DNA of 53,557 nt, taken from positions 1 through 53,557 of the forward strand of contig NOWV01000171.1 in assembly GCA_003344405.1 (NCBI GenBank), in the 5' to 3' direction. A model generated the notes under the pieces. It did no database searches, was not told where the DNA came from, and was given only the letters and a program-made list of their open reading frames with translations. Below, piece after piece: positions 379 to 48,664 of this stretch. The DNA comes from Trichoplax sp. H2 (Eukaryota). Position numbers and translations under genes: made by a program. Every line of letters starts with the position of its first letter. Positions within the stretch are counted from its first letter, which is position 1.

Positions 379-843
379 AATATGCAGTAAAACATTATGT
401 AGCGTAGAATAGCCGTTCGTGCATAAAATGTAAAATAAATGTGGGTGGTGGCCGATACGTTAATATTTTACACTTTAGAGATGAAAAACCGATTCATTTC
501 AGAGGCATAAGTATAACAAAGACTTTATGTTGCAGTACTATTTGATGCTTTAATTAAATTAAACTAATTGATGAAATCCAAGTAGTTTTAAATCAATTTA
601 TTTACTAGATTAATTCTAACTTAGCAGCAAAGCGTAATTGTTTATTGATTCTGTCCTAAAATTACTATTTTATGCAACTAGTAATATGCTATTATCGTAT
701 TTCAGCTTATATAACTATACAATACCCCAGCTTTGCGATCCGAAAAGATTTGAAACAATTACTAACCAAATATAGACACTAATGATTATTACGGTCAATG
801 ATAGAAATTTTCTAAATTGATGAGATAAATACTAATATTGCAG

Positions 844-1241
844 TCGTTATTTACTTTCTTGACAGCCGTCGATTCTATTCAAAAACTTGCAACTCAAAAT
901 AAAATAAAGTATGGAACTGTTCAAGGAAGCAGCGTTGACAATTTCTTTCACAAAACTGGTCTTAGTCCTTATTATGAAATGGCTCCGTATATGGCCAATG
1001 TTCCCACTACTCAACAAGGCGTCCAAAAGGCTAAAGAAGGCAATTACGCTTTTCTATGGGACGCAGCTTTGTTAAACTATTATAAGAATATACATTGCGA
1101 TGTTATGACCGTTGGTGGTGAATTCCATAAAGATGGCTACGGACTAGGGCTGAGAAAAGGATCACCCTATACGCAAGAGTTTAGCGTAGCTATTTTAAAA
1201 TTAAGGCAAAATGGTTTCATTGAAAATAGAATAAAAAAATG
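844..1241 (+). CDS. Ionotropic glutamate receptor exon: the S2 ligand-binding lobe after M3 (kainate/AMPA-like). The gene is 5'-truncated by the window edge.
   Basis: Translation ...KYGTVQGSSVDNFFHK...EGNYAFLWDAALLNYYKNIHCDVMTVGGEFHKDGYGLGLRKGSPY...AILKLRQNGFIENRIKKW matches the iGluR S2 consensus (YAFLLES...C...GG...GYG...KGS...L.E.G..L..KW). Acceptor ttgcag at 838-843. An in-frame stop lies upstream at 826-828. Donor TG|GTAAGT is phase 2. Confidence 0.8.
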
Positions 1242-1839
1242 GTAAGTCATTTTATCAGCTATTGTAATTCATTCATTGTAAGATCCTTAGACATATATGA
1301 CGGTCTTAAAAATTCTTCAAATCCATTATTATCATACTTTTAAAACTTATAATGCACCGTATTCACGCTATTGATTGATTTAATTAATAAATAAAATCAT
1401 GAAGAGATCTGAAAATCTTAATGAATAGATACCACAGATAACCAAGTTGTCGGAAAAAAATTGGATTTAATATGTAGTATTATGCTATGAAGTAATACGA
1501 GTACGGTACATCACTGCTAATACACATACCCGTAGAAGGAACGCTCCTGATTATTATATGTAAGAGATACAGCAATATAGCCAAATAGCCACACTCTTAT
1601 ACACGTATAATCTGTTGTCCACAAGTTTCAAGCAAAAAGATTTTCCGGATCAGTTCAAAAATAACTGGATATCATTTATTTCTATCCATTTATTAGTTAC
1701 GCGAGTTATAAATATTCGTAAATACTACTGAGTACTAAGGTCATAATAGAATATATCACATAAGTTAGGCAGCGATTTTATATGATTTAATTTTATAAAG
1801 TTATATTAACACATGCAAATTCCATATATTTTCAATCAG

Positions 1840-3406: not shown

Positions 3407-5128
3407 CACGCATTATACTATAGATTAGATCTTATAGATTATAGGTTCTATTAGTTCAGTAATACTAGTACAAAAAATTGCAAAGTATCAAAACATCAAT
3501 ATCTCGCGATGGTACTAGTATCCTAGAGTATTGACCATTATACTATAAAGAATAAGCATACAGTTTATTATTAGTTGCAGTCAGTTCAATTTAATTATGG
3601 TATATAGATAAATAGAATAAGAAACCAGATGGTAACAATTATATTGTCTTGCTCAAAACTTTTATTTTACTATCTTGGCATATCAATAGAATCAGTATAT
3701 CTATCAAATTAAATTTTTTCATCTACTTTTCCAACATAACAATAATAGATAACAAAATAATTGTATAGCTTCAAATAATAAGCTACGATGATAACCAGAC
3801 AACATTATCTGTTAAGTATTTATCGGTTACTACAAATAAGGTTAATAAAATCATCTTTATCCATCTATTGTGTCTAGCATATGAAATTTGTTAAAGAAAT
3901 TGAACAAAATATGGTTATTTAAATATCATCTTTAAACATACACTATATTGTTCTTAAAAGAGGGCAACTGTAACTGATTAAGACAGATTACACAATTCCA
4001 GCTTTAACATAATTTCCTTTCCTTGGATATTTAACAATGTATAGGGATAATATCCTAATTTCCATTTTTCTCGTTGCGGATGTCTTACGTAAATTGTCAA
4101 CTGATGAATTACTGGCACATGATCAATACATTAAGTTTAGCATTTATCCTAAGGTAGTGGAAATAATTATACAATAATACTCTCCAAGTATCGGCTTACA
4201 GTGTAGCATTATGCTAAGTTATTCCAATACAGTCAATTACTTTAATTTATCTTAGGTATGCAAACATCCGATAGTATATTATCAATTATTTTACAATTCA
4301 TATTGTAACGATTAGAAACTATGTTTTCGGATTGGATTTAGCGATAATATCCATGAAATCGAATGTAATTTACATGAATTGCAACTTAATAGCTGAGAGT
4401 ATTTGAATCACTGTTTTGATTATACCTTAATTTCCTAAAACTAAAAGTCAATAGATCAATATTAAATTTTTACTTGATCCATAAATTCTGAAAACAATTG
4501 TTACGCTGATAATAATGACATCATGATATTGAAATTTCAGAAAGGGTTGTAAATAATGCAAATTAAAAAATTTAATGGATTACCGATTGAAAGGCGGCTA
4601 GAATTCAGTATGTCAATGCAGATAACTAAAATTTCTTCAAAATACCTATATTGAAAATCTAAAAATTACCGATTCCGAAGAAAATATAGACATCAATAAT
4701 AGTTACTTGAGTTAAAAGAGTAAACTAATATTAATATACTAACAACAAATATAAAAGATGCAATACAAGTGTAAAAGTAATTTCAATCTTTATGTTAATA
4801 GCCCTCATGAACACGTTCTGCATAATAGTTATTGGTGATTGTAGGCATATGATTCACTAATTATAGTTCCTCCCATTGGTCATAATGAAACTTCTATGAT
4901 AAAATGAAAATGTTGCTAAATGCGTAATGCTATTGTTGATAGACTACCAGTGTCACTTTTTCCTGTGATTGTTTAAGAGTTGCTCTTTAAACTAACCAAT
5001 ACAATAAATATTATACACATTAAGGGCATACAATCATTATCACACATTTTATCTTCAAGAGGTAACATTATTAACAACTTAAATTTCGCCGAATAATTAA
5101 TTAATCGTGGAGACGATATAATTTTGCA

Positions 5129-5331: not shown

Positions 5332-7699
5332 GTAAGAGAAATAATAATTAACTTTTGCTTTATGCATCTCTAAAGATTACCCAAAATTTGTTAATTAACC
5401 CTTCTCACTGTTTTATCAAAGTCATATTGATAGTATAACATGTAGTAAATTTATCAACAAAATCCAAGAGAATATCTCTCTCTGTAAATAAATAAAATCA
5501 GTAAAATCATTAATACCTATAAAGATGTCACATAATTTCTACGATACGAAAAACGACTTAAAAGCACCATTTTGCAATAGATTATACAGTCTTATACTCT
5601 GCAAGTTGCTATTACGTTTGCAACCAATTTGGTATAATTCTATGCTAATAAATTCTAAGCTACTTTAAAGTACTGCATAGGTAACACTATGTCACGGTGA
5701 TAACTCACCGTACCAAATTAGTACATGCTTTGCGGCTACAATGATATTGTAAGCCGAGGAGTACGTAACCAGATATAGATTGTAGACGGTACGATTTAAA
5801 TTGTGATGTGTTAAAGGCATTTATATCTATAGTTGGATTAGCAGTATTCTAAGAGGTGTATAAAAGCTTGTAGATAAAATCTATTTAAACGATTGGACAA
5901 ATTAATAAAAGTTAGTTCTTAGTTCCTAAGGTTAGAAGTATAACGTAAATCGAAGGAGTACGAATTATTGCGAGATCGTAGATTCGATCACAACGTTATC
6001 TTGTCACACGGGAGTTTGTGACACACTAAGCCTTTAAAAGCATCATCCGGGCAATATCCTTTCTAAGATCTATTATGGAAACTACATAATTCTATATTAG
6101 TGGGTATGAAGGAGCGATATTAATAAGCGAAAACAATCAAGTTTTAATCGCAGCATTTACAATTTGTCGAAATTGCATGATAGCTCCATTTACAGCCATA
6201 TTTTAAAGGGTTTTTAAAAATATGAGGTTAATCCTTAAACAACAAATTTCTACTGCAACAGTTATATTTATTTAAATATAATTCACGTTGCAATGTCCTT
6301 ACTAGGCTAAAGTCGTGGGAATAAATAATGAGATATTAATACCCCAGGAGATTTTATATCTAGTATTTATTCAGCAATTAACTATTCAACATTTGATATT
6401 GTAACTTTGGAATGTTGATGGTCTATAATAAATAAAGGAAGTTTACCTCTTATACGTGCTAAGGATTAAGTATTATAATTGCCTATAGCTACAAAATTAA
6501 GCTCTGAATATCGTAATTTTCGCGAGTGTATATGCCGGAGCGCCATTAAGTAAATAACTTTTCTGGCTAAACCTCAAGACGTAACTTTCAACTATTTTTG
6601 AATCCACATCTTCAGGTCCACAATTCCAAGTTAAAAATTTTTCATTACAGTCCTAAATTAGTCATACTACCAGGGATAAAGTGTATTTACTTTATGATAA
6701 ATAAATATCGATAAGTACCGTCGTCATTCTAATCTTTAATATCTTAGACTACTTAGTTGGAAATATCATTCTGTTTATTTTGATTTTAAATAACATTATC
6801 TACTTTAAGTTTTCTTCTTAAAAAGCTTAAATATGCCGATAGAGTTTACAACACAAACAAATACAAATATAAAAATATGTTCTAAATAATATTAGAAGAT
6901 ATTTTCGCAAACTTTAAATTTTACTAAGTTATTGTTCACTATTGAATCGTATAAATAGCAAATTAAAGGAAATGTAAAAATAGAGCCTAATCAATAGCAT
7001 AGCTGAAATTATCAGTACAAATGCATTTATTTATTTATAGGACAACAAAGATAGCTCATTTTTGTTACCATAGTAGCATCTATCATAGATTTACACAAAG
7101 TACAATACTTACCGCATATACCCTATATGATCAGCATTCATCATTATGCTGATTTATTTCTTTGCAGAAAATCTTGTTATACCATCTTCATAAAATGGGG
7201 GAATATCTTATACAGTATTTTCAAAATTTATTTTACATCAGATTTTAGCCTATTCCACATGGAAAATTAAGATATCGGTAGATGCCAAACGATCTCTTAT
7301 TCCCTTAACAAATAAATCATTTGCAGACAGGAGTGAAAGGGATTTTTTTATATAAGATTTACTTTTAGATGATACTAGCAGCAAATCGATACTCTAAAGT
7401 AAAAAGCACAGCGTTTGTTCAGTTAAAACAATTATTTCAAAATAATTCTGTTAGATTTAACCTTCATATTTACCATTTTTATGGATACAAAATTGATATT
7501 TGAATCCTGTAATATCAAGTGTTTGATTTCATCATGATTTCCTAAACAAATAATATACACTGCTTTTACTCAACCATTTAGTCATGAATAAAATTCAATT
7601 TTACTAATTTATTAATTTCACTTTTTTCATATACGGAATTTTTGATGCTCTTCCAATTTATGAATCAAGCTGCTGCATATTTATGCCTGATCTTATCAG

Positions 7700-8630
7700 G
7701 ATAACCATTGGTGATATACCGATCTACACCAAAAATTCTTGGAGGTGTCGATTAGGGAAAGCTGCACCATTATATGCTGGAGTCGTCAATATCTATTCAA
7801 TGGCAGCAATAGCAGTAGCGAGATATGTTGTCGTTGTTCAGCCTAAGAAATCATCATGGATTAAAGATAAAAGAAGTTATTTTATAATCACTTTGATCAT
7901 TTGGGTCATACCATTTGTAATAGTATTGCCACCGGTTATTGGGTTTTGGGGTAAATACACCTACTTTCGTGATATTGGTGTATGCTTTTCCATTTATTTT
8001 ATTACCCAAGATTTGAAGTATAAGTCCTATTTCTTCTTCCTTTCCTCTTTTGGTATAATTATACCGACATTAACTATGATAATGTGTTATACCTCGATAT
8101 ATCTTGCCGTTAGAGAAAGTCGAAGACGCTTGGCTAGGCACTCCAACAACAGTTTTAATCAAGTACATCCTGAAGCTGCCAACGAAAATGGAAATTCTTC
8201 GAAAAAATTAAAGCGCCTGCGAAAATGTAAGCATGGGAAAGGATCATCGCAAATGTTACGAACTTCAGTTAGCAATGACAGTTCTAAAAGTAGCGCAGCA
8301 AGTTCATCTCGATCTCCAGAAGTTAGTAAACAAGAATTAAAACTAACAGCAACCTTGGCTCTTATCTTTATATCCTATTTGGTTACCTACATACCATACA
8401 CAATCTCGATGATTATTAATTTTTTCCTATACCAACCTGAAATTATACAATTACAGTTTGGTTTTCTATTCGTCAGCTACACTGGTAACGCTATCAACCC
8501 AATCATCTTTTACAAGCGCGATAAACGATTCAGGCAACTAGTTCTATCATGCCTTGAATTTTTTATACCAAGAAAGCGTCGTCGACATAATACCGTCATA
8601 CATCGATTTATCGTGGAAAGTAATTTCTAA
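7700..8630 (+). CDS. Orphan class A GPCR, paralog 1, exon 2. Encodes TM3 to the C-terminus: TM3 Cys with an ARY triplet at the DRY position, a long Ser/Lys/Arg-rich ICL3, TM7 NPIIFY, and a helix-8-like KRDKRF.
   Basis: Acceptor ctgatcttatcag|G is phase-matched, giving AG+G=Arg. The 310-codon ORF runs to TAA at 8628-8630. Motifs seen: WRCRLGKAAPLYAGVVNIYSMAAIAVARY and GNAINPIIFYKRDKRF. Confidence 0.85.
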
Positions 8631-13680: not shown

Positions 13681-14811
13681 GTAAGAATTATTTTTCATGT
13701 AATAAGACGGAAAATATTTTCTACTAATTCCCTTTCCATCTCTATTTATCACACTTGTCTAAGTAATAAAAAACTAGAAATCTTCCACTAATTCACTTTT
13801 CATTTCACCTTTATCATATCCCCCCCCTAATTAAGACAAACATTAGTCCATATAAGTTACTTATAATTAATGAGAGCTTCATTGCTTTGAAGATATTCTA
13901 TTGCTATAGAAGTGAATAAACTTAATCTACAGTTTTTCTTTGCTAGTAAATTATTGATTAATTCGTTCCGCTTGCACACCGCATGCACTCAAATAGACAA
14001 AGATAATTTAATGTTATCTTAATACAAAATATACGAAGTATATACCATACAGTACAGCTGTGATATATACCAATCACGAGATTCCAAATTTTAGAAAAAT
14101 AAGGCTTTATTGAATCTTACACAGAGATTAACTACACACAGCTCTACTCTAGCCGGATACTACTTCTAAAGACTTCCAGAATGAACTAACAGAATAATCT
14201 AAAGTTGCATGCTTTTATACTTTCCGTAGCATTCGCAGCTGCAATCCGCAAGGCAACCTTTTACCTTATTTTACACATAGCTAAATTATTCTTAGTAAGA
14301 CTATTCTACTGCGGACCATCATTAATCCAATATGGATACCACTACAGTACTTACGCAGACATTATTCACACCAGCCAAAGTACAATGAATTAATCATATC
14401 CTAATATATGATTTACAGTTCTATTTTTACCTATAGCCTTATTAGTAACTCAATACCTTACTGTATATAGTCATCTGTACTCTTGCATAGAGTCTATACT
14501 ACTACAGTCTATAGTTATAGCTACCAAATATCTCTTAGGATAAATATCTACCGTACATTATACTAAACATGGCTAATAGTCTACAATCACAATACTAGTT
14601 ACATTACAACAGCGCTTGATGCAAATGGGCAATTTTTATCGTTGCACTTACATGTATCCCTCTGAAAAGATACTCTCTAAATTAATTTAAGAATTCTTTA
14701 AACCTTTTATAAGTATATGATAGCAGTTCTCAATATCATGTAAATGTAAATACCTTGTTCTAGTATTTAAATGTTTTAATTTTGGCGCAAATTTTATAAC
14801 TTCATTTATAG

Positions 14812-15700
14812 TTATTTTCTCTTCTTCCCAAATTTAATGAAAATCTATAATGGTCAAATACCCATTTACGATTCAAATACGCTTCTTTGTCGACTTAATA
14901 TGGCAATACCTCTCTATTTCTTTATCAGTAACATTAACAGTATAACATTGATGGCAATTATTCGTTATCTGGTTATTGTAAGACCAAGAAAATTAATGTG
15001 GCTGAAAAAGAAAAGATGGGTCTCTAGTCTTTACGTCCTAAATTGGTGTATACCTCTCATATTTACCTTGCTTCCTTTATTTGGCTATTGGAGTAAATAT
15101 TCTTACTTCTCCACATCTGGCCTTTGTGTTATCATATATAGATTAGACCAAAATAGTAGCAATCAGAGCTACTTTATTTGCTTCCTATTGTGTGTATTAA
15201 TATTACCTATCTTGATAGTTACATTCTGCTATTATAAAATTTATTACACTGTTAAAGCGAGTAAGAAAAAGCTTAGTTGTCATGCAAGTATTGGTAAAGA
15301 TTTGGCTTCGTCGTATTCATCCTTTGCATGGTCTTCCTCGCATAGTCTACAAAGTGTTGCAAATAAATGGAGTAAACGACGAGAGTTAGCATTCACTCAA
15401 ACTTTGTTGATTATCTTTATCGCATTCCAATTATCTTTTCTGCCTTTTACGGTATTATTCTTGTTAACTTACTTACATTCACTAACATTACTTATCCAGT
15501 TTCTTGTTGGTTTCTTCTTACTAAGTTCTGTCGGTAGCGCTATTAATCCAATAATCTATCTCGTACGTAGCAAAAAATTCAATCAAACATCGCCTACTTT
15601 AAAACGAAATATATGTTATTCTGTTAAAGCTGTTCCGATCCTTATTGCCTCTTCTAACTCTCTTTATAATACTGCTAAAGGAAATAAGCTCCATGCATAA
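14812..15700 (+). CDS. Orphan class A GPCR, paralog 2, exon 2 (TM3 to the C-terminus: CRLNMAIPLYF...IRY...NPIIYLVRSKKF).
   Basis: Only one phase-compatible acceptor exists downstream of the in-frame stop at 14777-14779: cttcatttatag|T at 14809-10. It adds about 10 aa to ECL1 relative to the paralogs. ORF runs to 15700. The stop and everything from TM3 on are secure; the acceptor is less so. Confidence 0.7.
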
Positions 15701-22842: not shown

Positions 22843-23229
22843 GTAAATAATTAAATTTTTTTATTACTTCAAAGCCGATATTTATATATTTTTTTATAGA
22901 AGTTGTAGAGTCAATTTTTGGAGAGAGATGAAGTTTTATAGTATCGGTCAATTTTAATGATCGGTAATGAGTAACTGGATCTAGACTGGTTTATATTAAA
23001 ATACATTATTTCGCATCTACTAGTAGAAATTTAATAGGACTCACATCTATTATTTTACGAAATCATTACAATTTGATTATCTATTCACTAATGTTTACGT
23101 ATATCTATTTTTCTTTCCTGTATGATGGTTCGATCGATAATTTTTTTCAATTCGATGGTCTACTTCTTTGGTTATACCGGTTATTATATCTGGGGACAGT
23201 TATATCGTTTTCTTTCCTGCTATGTATAG

Positions 23230-24106
23230 AGCTTCTATCGGTCGAACTCCTGTTTATCCCACATCGACAATTAGTTGTCGAATCGAAGTTGGGTTACCTC
23301 TATATTTTGGAATAGTCAATATCTATTGCATGACTGTATTAGCGGTGACAAGATACATCGCTATAGTTACGCCGCAGCGTATGATTACTGTGAGGAGGCG
23401 ACACGGAATCTTGATTATATCACTTTTAACTTGGACTTTACCATTGATTTTTACTCTACCACAAATATTTGGTTATTGGGGTGGTTTTAGTTATACTAAT
23501 GGTCTTGGTATATGCCTCGGCGTTTATCATTATAGCCAAGGATTCTTAACTGGTTCTTACTATATATGCTTAATTTTGTTTGTAGTTCAATTTCCGACTT
23601 TAATTATCGGTTGGTGCTATCATCAAATTTACCTTGAAGTGAAAAGAAGCCGTTTGCGTATTAGCCAATTCCGTTCTAGTACCGAACATGATGATCCATC
23701 CGCTTCTAGCCACTCACGAGGAACTAAGCGAAATATAACTATCTCTGGCAATCAAGGAAATCGTTCTAGTAGAAGGCGGGAACCCGAAAATCGAAAAGCC
23801 GAAATTGCTATCGCTAAAACTTTAGTAATTATTTTTGTTACATTTCAAATTTCATTCATGCCCTATAGTGTAGTATCTTTCTATAATTTCATCAGTCATA
23901 CTTCTTACACAGTCTTACTTCAACTTGGCTTACTGTTTGTGACTTACATTGGTAATGTAGCCAATCCCTACATATTTTTATTTCGTAGTGATAAGTTTCA
24001 AAAATTCTGCAACTGGCGTTTAATGAAATGTTGTCAAAAGGGAAGATTTAACACTAAAGTTAGGCCAGTACGTTTACCTGATACTGAGCTTTCATCACCT
24101 TCATAA
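23230..24106 (+). CDS. Orphan class A GPCR, paralog 3, exon 2 (TM3 to the C-terminus: SCRIEVGLPLYFGIVNIYCMTVLAVTRY ... GNVANPYIFLFRSDKF).
   Basis: Acceptor ttctttcctgctatgtatag|A is phase-matched, giving AG+A=Arg. ORF runs to the stop at 24104-24106. Confidence 0.85.
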
Positions 24107-33440: not shown

Positions 33441-33621
33441 CTAGTAAAACAATAGCAAATGCATAATTACTTTATTGTTTTATCTACCTACGCCAATAAA
33501 TCAAATTATGCAGTAGTTGTTCAATACTATATATTAATGTAAGTATAAGAAAGCAATACGTGAGTGAATAGACCGATTCCAACTGTATTTTAATAAAGCG
33601 AATTAATTAAATAATATTTAC

Positions 33622-33736
33622 TTTGAAGATTCTTGGAGCTTTAGGGTCTGTTTTAACATCAATAACATATACTCTACTGGATTTCAGACTGGGTAATATC
33701 AGTTTATTACGTTCTTTAGTCGAATCTCCAAAGCAG
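33622..33736 (-). CDS. SELENBP1: SBP exon 4 ([38 protein letters not shown]).
   Basis: Acceptor cattatatag. Matches human [38 protein letters not shown]. Donor AAA|GTAAAT. Confidence 0.88.
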
Positions 33737-34057
33737 CTATATAATGAAAAATGTTAAGTGTTGTTAAATCAAATAGCCAACTGCAATTAAAGAATCTTAA
33801 AAATTATTAAATCAATTTGCAAAAACGAAACAATTATAGCATCCTATTACAACACCGAACCATTTCATAATATATATTAATTACACTATTAATTTAGAAA
33901 ATTTAAATGTCTTATGCAGATCATGATATATTCTGGCTAATTATTCTGATCAGTGTAAGGCAAGAGACCATGATAGCTGAGAAACTATTAGGATTATTGT
34001 TTAGTTTGTATATCACGCGTTGTTTTGTTCATTATAAAGCTTATAATTAATAAGCAC

Positions 34058-34076
34058 CTGCTACAAGTATTCCAGC
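34058..34076 (-). CDS. SELENBP1: SBP exon 3: a 19-bp micro-exon encoding (G)WNTCS(S).
   Basis: tttctttag|GCTGGAATACTTGTAGCAG|gtgctt. Phases 1 to 2. It restores the exact human motif HHSGWNTCSSCFGDS between exons 2 and 4. Without it, exons 2 and 4 are out of phase. Confidence 0.8.
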
Positions 34077-34834
34077 CTAAAGAAATGATTATAGTTAACG
34101 AACTAATTAGCAAACCAAGAGCATATCAACATTTTAAAGTAGACAATACATTTAGAAGATCATAGAGCTAGAATCTAACACTTACAATAACTTATTTTAA
34201 GCATGCTACAAAAAACAGTACCAGATTATAGTTACGTAAAATAGAGTAATGTAGATACCTCCTGCTCACGATTTAGATTTTGCTTTAAAGTTAAACTTCA
34301 ATCGGCGTTATTATTATCGAATTTACAGAAGATATTATGTTCTAACGGTAATTTTGCTTTCGTTTAAATTGAAAATATGTATGCGAAAAAGTATACGACT
34401 AGTAAGCTTTTTCCAGTCAACTGTCTACAACTATTGACATTTTTATTATTTTAACATACTATGGTCTACGTTGCTACGTATCTCACTCAATTTCTACTTG
34501 GAAGTTATCATACTGCAGTGATACCTATCTTTTTATGTATGCACTAAAAATGATATGGTTATTCACTATATCTAAGAGTATATTTAAAAAAAGTACGCCG
34601 ATATAGTAAAACTGACCATATTGTACTTAGGACTAAACTACTTTTAATTTATAGAAAATCTTTATAGTAAATTCAAGACTATTTAGTCATTATACTGTAA
34701 GTATAATATTTAATTGATCATAGTATATCGAATAGTATTGATTGATGTTCTTTAATAATGATTAATTATTATTTGGAGAACTACACGCAATTCATTTAGT
34801 TACTTAGCATAGGTAGTAAAGAATACAAATTTAC

Positions 34835-34886
34835 CTGAATGATGGATTTCGTCTCCAATGTGAAGCATAGACAACCGGTGAATGAC
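34835..34886 (-). CDS. SELENBP1: SBP exon 2 (VIHRLSMLHIGDEIHHSG).
   Basis: Acceptor ttttag. Matches human VIHRLPMPNLKDELHHSG. Donor CAG|GTAAAT is phase 1. Confidence 0.88.
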
Positions 34887-35274
34887 CTAAAACATTCATT
34901 AACAGTAAATTAAAATAGTTGAAAAACTTGTTTTAAAATGCAGGATTAGTTACTTACGCATTTAATATTTTTACGATACGATTTAAAGATTAATTACTAT
35001 TTGTTCCTCATATCACTACTTTGATATACATTATTTATCAAATAAAATATGACAGTCGTATATAATAATAAGCTTGATTCTGGGTAATTTGGCGTGGTGG
35101 TGTACTATATAACTGTAACGTATATCGAATAATATTAGTTTACAGTCCTTAATCTAGAATACAACTTTTAAGCTTTGGAAGAATTGATAAAAATCGATTG
35201 CAAAGTATGAACCATATAATGCAGTATTTGTTAGTTTGTAGTAGTGGAAAACGTGTCTTATTGATGGAACATAC

Positions 35275-35448
35275 TTGACCATAGGTCTCTGATTCCAAGT
35301 CAACGTCAACAGTTGCTAGATAATCTGGCTTCTTAACATCAGTATTATTATAAATGCAAGGTATATATAGTAATTTCTCTCTAGGACCTTTCATAGCATC
35401 GATTGGTGTTAAGTATCCCGGACCGCAGCTAGAGCAAGCTATAGGCAT
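35275..35448 (-). CDS. SELENBP1: Selenium-binding protein (SBP56/SELENBP1 family; methanethiol-oxidase family), coding exon 1.
   Basis: ATG at 35448-35446. The 58 codons [58 protein letters not shown] align with human SELENBP1 ([37 protein letters not shown]...[18 protein letters not shown]). Donor CAA|GTATGT. Confidence 0.88.
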
Positions 35449-38400
35449 ATTTAAATGGATTAATGATAGTTAGATCATACCATGAGAACAAATTTAATAT
35501 TGTAGTAATGATCAATCTCTGCGTATAACAGATTAAAAATTTAATATCACATCAATAGATTTCCTTCTTATGTACACTTCTTAATTACTTAAGTCAGCTG
35601 TTGAAGTCTAGTAAAATCTTTATTATATTCTTATAATGAGTAAAACTAAGAATGGATCGAAATTGGATCAACGACAGATAATTTTAGCAATTTACTTTGA
35701 CATTTAAAGCATCCAAGTAAATTTATAATTATACATGCGCATATAAAAAATGAAGAATGCCAGCTGTAGGTTAACCTACTTTATGATACATTCATCTATT
35801 TCTTCTTGCTATATATCAGTTCATAGCCTTTACTTGAATCGATATAAAAGTAGATACGCGTGCTAATACTTACGATTTATCAGTGACATTCTATATCATA
35901 AATCACAAGCTTTGTGTAAAATTGATGAATGCTAAAATATGGACTACTGAAATATGACTGAAGTTTTTCATAGTCCGTAGCTTACGATCATTGCTTATAA
36001 ATAATTATATTGAATCTTAAACACCATCTTATTTTAATAGTATTTGTCGCATTATATAAATATAAAAATACGAGAATACTTTGAAATCTTACCCATTTGT
36101 AGATTGAGAGCTAAGATCAATTGATAATGATTCTTCTAGTAAAAATTGATAAATTAGATCCTGTTTGAATAAAGAAAGTTATTTCATTAAAGCTTATATA
36201 TTGTTGTTAAATATCTATATATTATAACGATTTAATTTCAACTTATTAATTCTAGGTTATATTTAAAAGCGAAATGGATTGTATCTATCGATTTATTTAA
36301 ATTTTTGACCACTCAACAACTTCTTATATGTTTAAAATGATATTTCTATAAGCGGAAATTTATTAAAAGTTTGCTTCTGAGACCCCATGATGGTGCCATG
36401 AGGGCGGAAACTTATATCTACTACCCAAACATTCTACAATCTGTTCATGACATGATTAGATGTAAATTTTTTTGAGAAAAGGTCTAAGAATAGCTAGTTA
36501 ACACACATACGTGGTTTATTTCTTCAACGAGGACTCGAAAAGCGTGTGAAAATTCAATCGTGAAACGTACTAAAATCTAGGGTGATAAACGGATGGATAG
36601 CTTAAAGTGAGGAATGAAGAATAGGAAACTGTTGCCCAATTTAATGAATGATTTAAATTAGCTGCTTTTATTTGATAGCAACCAATTTGCAATATGCTTT
36701 AATTGATAAAAGTATCATGAATTTATAATAATCATCATTCCATTTCATTGTTACGACGACTATTACAATCATGGGCTAGATTGTATTTCGCTTATACTTA
36801 TAATTAATTAAACAACGTCGGCTAACCAGCTAGGGGTAAAATACAGTAAATCAAAAATTAGTCAAGATCAACAGAGCATATAAAGAACTATTAAAGTATA
36901 GAGTAAGGACACCTAATAGAGCATTGTACTATCTGCATATTTGTGATCTGATGCAACGGTGCTTTTGTCTCTTTCAATTTTTGAACGTGTAGCAGCATGG
37001 AGGAGCATTGTCTGTCAATCTCCACCCCCTTCCTAATAAATATCTGAAGAGCGGCATGCAGAGTGAAGGAGAATTATCGCAGCCTTTAAGATAAATTAAT
37101 AGTCCAATACTAGCAGATTTTCATTCATGGCCACTATCAAGTATTTGATAGTCGTGCCAAAAGTAGTTAAACTAGAGGCGTACAAGTATCCAAATTACGC
37201 TACCGATATATTGCATAGAAGATTAACAGTGTTGCATTTATATCAAATGTATACCTATAAACTGGGTGAAAGACACTTATACCATATGCTACTATAAAAG
37301 CACAATTGATACAGGAATCATAGAACTGTACAAATATGAAGTAGAAATGTGTAATTGATTAATTTCAAAGTTCCTTTCATTATTAATGAATTATGTAAGA
37401 TGCTCGAGGTCTAAATTTGATTACTATCAGAACTACATTACAGCTTGATGACTTGTATGTTGCAAAGTAGCCTGTCTACTTTGCCCGTAGTAGAAATGTT
37501 ACGGCAGTTTCCAGAATTAAAAAGTAATTCTAGGTATAATCTTGACTATGAACTGCAACTATAAATTGAATCTAAAATCATTTTAGGTTAAACCGGTATC
37601 TAATTATCTAAATTCAAAGTTATAATAATTATATATAAATTATTATTTTATTCTATATTGAGTTCTGTCTCTGTACATGCATGTGAGTTAATTGCTACAT
37701 CCAACTTACCTTACGCGTACGCCAGGCGAAAATGTTGCTCTACTTTCAAAACCCTGTGCTATTATACCTTAAGATAGTAATTGGGTATGGCTTCAAATCT
37801 TGGAATGATCACTTTAAATCGTGATGATGCATTATATGTGCAGTTTACTATGACCGGCATGTGCTAACATGTGATTAGCATAGTAAAATATGATGATGTT
37901 GTAAAGACTAAGCAAATTTATGAAGTTCCTATATGATATTATCATCTTTAACTGCCCATGACAATGCAAAATTTTAAATTTGCATCTCATTATAAATGCT
38001 ATTCTTTGTCAAACAATGCTCGTAGTACATGCCATTTTTAGTGCCTTCTTTTTATTGATGAGGGTTATTGGAGCTTTCCTCCTAGAACTCTGTTCAGGTG
38101 ATCATAATTCTGTGTCTAACAGAGATGCTACCGATAAAACGTGACAAACTCGACTTTGCTAACTATGAATCACCATGTTAATTCTTGTTATTGATTCCTA
38201 TAAAACTCCTCACTTTTCTGTGTTAATATTTGCACGGAAGTTGTTATATATTTGAGAGAAATGCAGCAACGAGTAGGCAATGCCTTCGCACAATAAGAGC
38301 ATATCAAAAAAGTATAATATCAACTACAATACGCTATAGACGTAACCAGATAGATTTTATGCATGCAAAACATCTCAACTTTCGATCGAGAATGCCAACT

Positions 38401-46684: not shown

Positions 46685-46844
46685 GTATGTATAAAGTTAT
46701 TTTATTCAAGAGTAATTATAATTTATTTATGCTTACAGTTACGACCTAAAATTTGAAAAAATTTCTTTCCTAATACAGTAGTCGCCATTATTATTGTGCA
46801 CTTTACTATGTTGCTTGTTAAGCCAATTTTTTTTTGTATTTCAG

Positions 46845-47095
46845 AGCTCTACTCGCAAAATAATTACAATGAATTCTGTACCAGCTTTCTATTTACCTAT
46901 CGCACTTTCCAAAATGGAGTACTAGGATTGGCCTATATTGGGTCAATTTGTAATATCTACGCTTTTACTGCCGCCAATACCCAACAAAGCACAAATTGTG
47001 GATTAGTAACAACACAAAATTCTGGTGAAGCAGTTCCACTTCGTGCTTCTGAAGTTACTTTCGCTCATGAATTGGGACATAATTTCGGTGCCCAG
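46845..47095 (+). CDS. ADAM10: ADAM10 exon 7: catalytic domain including the zinc-binding site HELGHNFGAQ.
   Basis: Acceptor tttttttgtatttcag. Translation ...NEFCTSFLFTYRTFQNGVLGLAYIGS...EVTFAHELGHNFGAQ matches human [25 protein letters not shown]...HITFAHEVGHNFGSP. Donor CAG|GTACGG. Confidence 0.9.
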
Positions 47096-47332
47096 GTACG
47101 GAACTTGAAATGGATAGATCCTACAAATTTTCTATTGATAGCAAGCTAGTAATTAGTTTGCTATCATGGTATAACACAGATCCAACTATAACTAGTACAA
47201 CGACAACATAACGTTGTAATAAATGTTCGATTATACCCGTTTATTGCATTCCTAACTTCTACATTGTACTGTATTATTAACTACAGCTGCTTTTAGTGCT
47301 ATAAAAATCTTATTGTGTGAATTTTTCTTTAG

Positions 47333-48172: not shown

Positions 48173-48664
48173 GAGTGCACTTTATCTCTTTGTGAGTTGC
48201 AAAACATGGCAGAATGTAAATGCTCTAGTTCAAGTGAAGCGTGTCATCTCTGTTGTCAATCAAAATCTGGTGGAACTTGCATATCCACTTATACAATGAC
48301 TACTCTTTTCAATAAAACTAATGTCCCGCCTGGTACCTCTTGTGCTAATATGACTGGATACTGTGACATCTTTAGCAATTGCCGGCAAGTCAACGAAGCT
48401 GGACCTCTATCTACGTTATTGAATATAACAACTCAACAAGTTTTGGATTGGGCTGCAAGGAATTGGTGGATTATATTATTAGTTTGCTGTTCGGTAGTGC
48501 TCGGTTTTGCGATATTTATTCGCTTTGTAGCACCATTGATACCATCTGATAACCCAGGACGCATAGAACCTATTGCATGCGGCTGCTGTGGCTGCAGTAA
48601 TCAGAGAAAGAAAAAGAATCCAGTGGCAATAGCTGACGACAACATTAATGACCAAAGAGTATAA
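48173..48664 (+). CDS. ADAM10: ADAM10 terminal exon: Cys-rich region, TM helix (WWIILLVCCSVVLGFAIFIRFVA) and a short 41-aa cytoplasmic tail.
   Basis: Acceptor ttgttattgtag. ECTLSLCELQNMAECKCSSSSEACHLCCQSK...SCANMTGYCDIFSNCRQVNEAGPL...NWWIILL... matches human [24 protein letters not shown]...[24 protein letters not shown]...AHWWAVLLMGIALIML. TAA at 48662-48664. Total CDS is 2142 nt, 713 aa. All phases are consistent. Confidence 0.9.
   Translation, partial: ECTLSLCELQNMAECKCSSSSEACHLCCQSKSGGTCISTYTMTTLFNKTNVPPGTSCANMTGYCDIFSNCRQVNEAGPLSTLLNITTQQVLDWAARNWWIILLVCCSVVLGFAIFIRFVAPLIPSDNPGRIEPIACGCCGCSNQRKKKNPVAIADDNINDQRV

Follow-up and report, generated by a model that had tools for sequence, protein, structure and literature searches.

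A 19-nt coding micro-exon in the Trichoplax SELENBP1 gene and its probable origin by intron gain

The SELENBP1 gene of Trichoplax sp. H2 contains a coding micro-exon of 19 nt, located at 34076-34058 on the minus strand, which is real and is essential for the reading frame of the gene. The DNA analysed here is a stretch of 53,557 nt (contig NOWV01000171.1, positions 1 to 53,557), referred to throughout as the window. We consider it highly probable that three elements hold jointly: that the 19 nt form a constitutive coding exon, the third of 11, of a single-copy SELENBP1 orthologue; that this exon arose through an intron gain in placozoans; and that glycine at residue 57 of the encoded protein is neutral variation.

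A scan for stop-free segments, after which peptide fragments were located, yielded an 11-exon gene on the minus strand in which all ten introns are GT-AG. Exon 1 (35448-35275, 174 nt) extends from the ATG to Q58; it carries the Cys5-x-x-Cys8 pair at 35436-35425 and the Gly57 codon, GGT, at 35280-35278. Exon 2 (34886-34835, 52 nt) encodes V59 through H73, H74 and S75 and supplies the first base of G76. It is followed by intron 2 (34077-34834), which at 758 nt (gtaaat...tttag) exceeds every other intron of the gene in length and lies in the context TCAG/GC. The micro-exon is entered in phase 1 and left in phase 2, and is separated by intron 3 (33737-34057, 321 nt, gtgctt...tatag, placed at AGCAG/) from exon 4 (33736-33622, 115 nt), the first base of which finishes Ser82 and the first full codon of which is Cys83. 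The remaining exons, all on the same strand, are exon 5 (33440-33320, 121 nt), exon 6 (33220-33038, 183 nt), exon 7 (32859-32678, 182 nt), exon 8 (32586-32508, 79 nt), exon 9 (32430-32309, 122 nt), exon 10 (31845-31634, 212 nt) and exon 11 (31462-31303, 160 nt including the TAA stop). The joined coding sequence comprises 1416 nt plus TAA and encodes 472 amino acids, among them HHSGWNTCSSCFGDS.

Read on the minus strand, the micro-exon region consists of tcatttctttag followed by GCTGGAATACTTGTAGCAG and then by gtgcttatta, and the 19 exon bases are 34076-34058. They encode bases 2 and 3 of Gly76, the residues Trp77, Asn78, Thr79, Cys80 and Ser81, and bases 1 and 2 of Ser82. The original prediction had placed an exon GCTGGAATACTTGTAGCAG between tttctttag and gtgctt at 34058-34076, had held that this exon is needed to close the frame, and had noted that its inclusion restores the motif HHSGWNTCSSCFGDS and gives a total of 472 aa, as in human SELENBP1; we found all of this to be exactly as claimed. 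The C80-x-x-C83 (CSSC) pair is likewise retained, divided between the micro-exon and exon 4. One coordinate required correction: the upstream junction had been given as 34886/34076, but exon 2 begins at 34886, and the correct junction is 34835^34076.

When exon 3 was left out by conceptual joining of exon 2 to exon 4, the frame shifted and a stop was reached 15 codons on. Between the exon 2 donor and the exon 4 acceptor (1098 nt), the frame could be restored by 24 stop-free AG...GT segments, each 4-100 nt long, and only one of them, 34076-34058, gives the family motif GWNTCSS. The pattern WN[TA]CS occurs once in the six frames of the 53.6-kb window, compared with 0.02 occurrences expected in shuffled sequences. 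Thus, chance is not a credible explanation of the match. No substitution occurs at G76, W77, N78, C80, S81 or S82 in any of 121 close homologues. The exon also has the attributes by which coding micro-exons are recognised: it is internal, falls below a length of about 30 nt, is flanked by AG and GT and keeps the frame, with all 472 codons open. At the acceptor there is a short tract of pyrimidines (tcatttctttag), and gTTAAc, whose branch A would lie at -19, is a plausible branch site.

The micro-exon would supply W77-S82 of the invariant HHSGWNTCSSC, including Cys80, immediately after the activity-essential His73 and His74. As its length is not divisible by 3, exon 3 has to be present in any functional mRNA; skipping would truncate the product at about 90 residues, which points to constitutive inclusion. 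Each of the flanking introns (758 and 321 nt, among the longer ones in the gene) may be recognised separately by intron definition, as is expected for a short-intron genome, so that the small size of the exon would present no obstacle.

We compared intron positions by threading 10 orthologues exactly onto their genomic loci, allowing GT/GC-AG introns in any phase and expressing each position as Trichoplax residue:phase. The comparison covers 11 sequences from 10 genera: Trichoplax, Amphimedon, Corticium, Halichondria, Stylophora, starfish, amphioxus, vole, Lingula and Owenia. Eight of the ten Trichoplax introns proved to be common across Metazoa. Seven of them (58:0, 120:0, 161:1, 222:1, 282:0, 349:0 and 420:2) are present in all nine other animals, and the eighth, 309:1, in seven of nine, being absent from Halichondria and Lingula. 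The two introns that flank the micro-exon are distributed differently from these and from each other. Intron 82:2 is found at the identical nucleotide (AGCAG/) in Trichoplax, Amphimedon, Corticium, Halichondria and Stylophora; it is absent from starfish, amphioxus, vole, Lingula and Owenia, in which a single exon of 186 nt equals the sum of the three Trichoplax exons (52 + 19 + 115). Intron 76:1 occurs in Trichoplax alone among the 11 sequences from 10 genera.

The four sponge and coral genes (Amphimedon, Corticium, Halichondria and Stylophora) therefore resemble that of Trichoplax in having intron 82:2 and the 115-nt exon that follows it, but have one exon of 71 nt where Trichoplax has 52 nt, an intron and 19 nt. 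The 71 nt equal 52 + 19 exactly, and there is no indel in the protein alignment. They further differ in having a phase-1 intron near the N-terminus, which Trichoplax lacks. The mammalian gene, represented here by vole, has eight intron positions in common with Trichoplax; its one 186-nt exon in place of the 52, 19 and 115 nt of Trichoplax means that it has no micro-exon, and it has extra introns at the N-terminal positions 2:1 and 21:1 and at 380:0. Two side observations arise from the same comparison. Exon 1 of Trichoplax is without the N-terminal phase-1 intron (residues 2-9) found in all nine of the other orthologues, and a single gene thus combines an intron loss with a probable gain at 76:1. 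Intron 82:2, absent from all five bilaterians sampled, is a candidate for loss on the bilaterian stem.

By parsimony over these 10 genera, a sample with neither a ctenophore nor a non-metazoan outgroup, intron 76:1 was probably gained rather than retained. With sponges as outgroup, its distribution calls for one gain as against at least two losses. The micro-exon probably originated when a phase-1 intron inserted cleanly at CAG/G into an ancestral 71-nt exon in the placozoan lineage; the point of insertion would have lain 19 nt upstream of the much older phase-2 intron 82:2, leaving an exon of 19 nt, and bilaterians would later have lost intron 82:2. The TCAG/GC setting of intron 76:1 resembles a proto-splice site. 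We lean, with some reserve, towards a placozoan-specific clean insertion into the most conserved motif of an ancient enzyme gene, which would have produced a micro-exon that is obligatory, its skipping causing a frameshift.

A different history, in which intron 76:1 and the micro-exon are ancestral to animals and were lost in sponges and again in cnidarians and bilaterians while placozoans kept them, is in our judgement unlikely, although it deserves serious consideration. Intron loss is generally commoner than gain in animals, and the Trichoplax gene keeps nine old intron positions, including the 82:2 that bilaterians have lost. On the other hand, 76:1 is absent from all three sponges (which represent two classes), from the coral and from all five bilaterians, so that at least two independent and exact losses would be needed where one gain suffices; nor is Trichoplax simply retentive, as it has lost the N-terminal phase-1 intron. 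No non-animal eukaryotic outgroup was recognised among ten 50%-cluster representatives; those with a name or an accession are prokaryotic, metagenomic, nematode or sea urchin.

No trace of the insertion mechanism was found. A blastn search of introns 1, 2, 3 and 9 against the 53-kb window returned no copies of intron 2, only chance matches of at most 29 nt. Intron 2 has no terminal inverted repeats (13 of 40 positions match), and no target-site duplication was found beyond the splice consensus. A transposon or 'introner' origin of intron 2 is thus unsupported, there being no copies or inverted repeats within the 53-kb window. Two tandem repeats near the introns are trivial and low-scoring. An RNA gene hosted by the introns was rejected as well, as there is no Rfam family or tRNA there: Rfam gave no gathering-level match anywhere in the window, nor any at E<=1 within 33600-35500, and no tRNAs were found in the window.

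The encoded protein is, by homology, a member of the SBP56/SELENBP1 family and hence a predicted methanethiol oxidase. Its residues 7-472 match positions 2-453 of the 453-position Pfam profile SBP56 (PF05694) with E 1.4e-216 and 720 bits, against a cut-off of 34. In a phmmer search, a comparison of sequences only, residues 12-470 match chain A of PDB entry 2ECE, from Sulfolobus tokodaii (E 1e-99), the structure which served as template for a seven-bladed beta-propeller model of SELENBP1 (PMC10362175). Human SELENBP1 (NP_003935.2) is also 472 aa long and is 66% identical over 472 aa, with one offsetting pair of single-residue gaps, and the common intron positions support orthology with the animal SELENBP1 genes. 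Among the homologues, two 'methanethiol oxidase' isoforms of the frog Pseudophryne corroboree, of 799 and 671 aa, greatly exceed 472 aa in length and score higher than true orthologues; here the gene model has probably fused tandem duplicates.

In the human enzyme and in SEMO-1 of C. elegans, methanethiol oxidase activity depends on each of six His, Asp and Glu residues, which have been connected with copper binding (PMC10362175). Trichoplax keeps all six: H73, H74, H137, H140, D189 and E252 (Trichoplax position 253), each conserved in 119-121 of 121 close homologues. The cysteines C5-x-x-C8 (in MPIACSSC), C80, C83 and C141 are also present. Human and Trichoplax proteins thus have in common C5, C8, H73, H74, C80, C83, H137, H140, C141, D189 and E252, and differ at residue 57, which is Cys in the former and Gly in the latter. 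No feature known to be important for methanethiol oxidase activity or selenium binding appears to be missing from the Trichoplax protein. SEMO-1 of C. elegans and MtoX of Hyphomicrobium, which belong to the same family, have been shown experimentally to be copper-dependent methanethiol oxidases, whereas the Trichoplax assignment is made from sequence.

Residue 57 of the Trichoplax protein is Gly, within ETYGQVIHR, and human NP_003935.2 has Cys57. The alignment bears out the substitution noted in the original prediction. A sequencing error behind the Gly codon is excluded, since the independent assemblies of Trichoplax H1 (GCA_000150275.1) and H2 agree; Gly57 is found also in two demosponges. 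The accompanying claim, that Cys57 is the selenium-binding cysteine, is outdated. Cys57 as selenium site was a modelling prediction, and many orthologues do not have this cysteine (Philipp et al. 2023, PMC10362175). In recombinant human protein, the C57S substitution left both selenium binding and methanethiol oxidase activity unchanged, while C5S/C8S lowered selenium binding, which depends mainly on Cys5 and Cys8 (PMC10362175).

An alignment of orthologues had been proposed as a way to weigh the conservation of Cys57 against that of the CxxC pair. In our MAFFT alignment of the 121 closest homologues, position 57 is Cys in 58, Ser in 55, Gly in six, Arg in one and Thr in one; the position is variable. 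A broader set, made up of those of the 150 best 50%-identity cluster representatives that are at least 300 aa long, gave Gly in 15, Cys in 13 and Ser in 11 of the aligned sequences. The Gly57 carriers among the close homologues are two Trichoplax proteins, the demosponges Amphimedon and Dysidea and two assembled sequences; Ser57 carriers include vole, marsupials, amphibians, sharks, amphioxus, corals and an annelid.

Together with the human mutagenesis, these distributions suggest that Gly57 is ordinary, presumably neutral variation at a non-catalytic position that would not take part in selenium binding. We think it very improbable that Gly57 instead marks a functional change, whether a loss of selenium binding or a less stable protein. 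Such a change could be argued from the human C57G mutant, the residue of which Trichoplax carries naturally: in HCT116 cells, human SBP1 C57G has an altered half-life, a changed response to selenite and gives weaker protection against it (PMC4661901). Against this, human C57S binds selenium and oxidises methanethiol as the wild type does (PMC10362175), the selenium-binding Cys5 and Cys8 are both present in Trichoplax, and Cys57 is absent from roughly half of the close homologues, among them those of a rodent, marsupials, amphibians, sharks, corals and sponges. As column 57 is so variable, the effect of C57G on human SBP1 is probably specific to the context of the human protein. The C57G state engineered in the human protein is one that occurs naturally in placozoans and demosponges.

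A check of the existing annotation for a frameshift or a truncated model had also been proposed. We found neither. An exact-sequence look-up showed the 472-aa model to be identical at every residue to GenBank RDD38560.1, 'Selenium-binding protein 1-A'; this is the same gene, and there is no difference between the two. The T. adhaerens protein XP_002108865.1 (TRIADDRAFT_19817, UniProt B3RMA7, 'Methanethiol oxidase') is also 472 aa long, has 99% identity and belongs to the same cluster, and both it and RDD38560.1 already have the micro-exon. Threading of the H1 protein onto its own locus returned the same 11 exons (174, 52, 19, 115 nt and so on). The H1 and H2 loci are 98.9% identical in DNA over 10 kb, and the seven exonic bases that differ all lie outside the micro-exon (H1 locus 4371-4389); with a divergence of only about 1%, this identity is uninformative as a test of constraint. 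The micro-exon is thus present in public gene models, and the H2 gene set was built by Maker with Trinity/Cufflinks RNA-seq transcripts as evidence (PMC6057997).

That the 19-nt match is not spliced in at all, the locus being a decaying pseudogene or exon 2 being joined to exon 4 in a different way, we regard as scarcely conceivable: the donor that follows the micro-exon, gtgctt, departs further from the consensus than any other donor of the gene, the spliced 44-mer across exons 2, 3 and 4 had no exact match in metagenome or metatranscriptome contigs and the protein cluster of the gene product contains no assembled-transcript member, but none of the 11 exons is interrupted by a stop or frameshift, all functional residues are retained, any other join removes or replaces the invariant motif, the same product came from two annotation efforts, one of which was given RNA-seq transcripts, and eight of the ten intron positions agree with those of orthologues.

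Several other features were observed in the window. Three tandem paralogous genes of rhodopsin-family GPCRs lie on the plus strand at 7608-8627, 14780-15697 and 23141-24103 (PF00001, E 1e-27 to 5e-29); each consists of one long stop-free stretch of 306-340 codons, and together they look like a tandem array that has expanded locally, upstream of the SBP gene. Exons resembling those of an ADAM10-like metalloprotease are located at 46757-47146 and 48173-48661 (+), one of them with a Reprolysin_2 match (E 3e-19) and the zinc motif HELGHNFGA, the other with an ADAM10 cysteine-rich domain (E 2e-14). The stop-free segment 41654-42007 (-) has a weak Hexapep match (E 4e-4, below the Pfam cut-off) and is possibly an exon of a dynactin p25/p27-like gene. 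GC content peaks in the 42-44 kb bin, at 0.40 compared with about 0.30 elsewhere in the window. A stop-free stretch of 138 codons at 829-1242 (+) resembles, by eye, the ligand-binding region of an ionotropic glutamate receptor, and returned no Pfam matches at E<=0.01.

The neuronal micro-exons of bilaterians, which Irimia and colleagues are said to have described in 2014, are reportedly 3-27 nt long, dependent on SRRM4, mostly multiples of 3 in length, alternatively included and involved in the modulation of surface loops. Like them, the Trichoplax exon is internal, very short and bounded by canonical splice sites. It differs in that its 19 nt shift the frame if skipped and encode an invariant core motif, and for these two reasons the Trichoplax micro-exon would have to be constitutive.

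Much of what is described here is already known. The gene, its product and, implicitly, the micro-exon are in GenBank for two Trichoplax lineages, and published work already describes Cys57 as poorly conserved and rejects it as the selenium-binding site. The new element is the comparison of intron positions, a small but clean data point, in which 82:2 is found in sponges, coral and placozoans and 76:1 is confined to Trichoplax. The analysis also shows that a split-codon micro-exon can be recovered correctly by a model reading raw sequence. The table of intron positions bears on the study of intron gain and of the origin of micro-exons. If our reading is true, the gene would be a dated case of intron gain giving rise to a micro-exon, and intron 76:1 could be used as a rare genomic change to order the placozoan lineages Trichoplax, Hoilungia, Cladtertia and Polyplacotoma.
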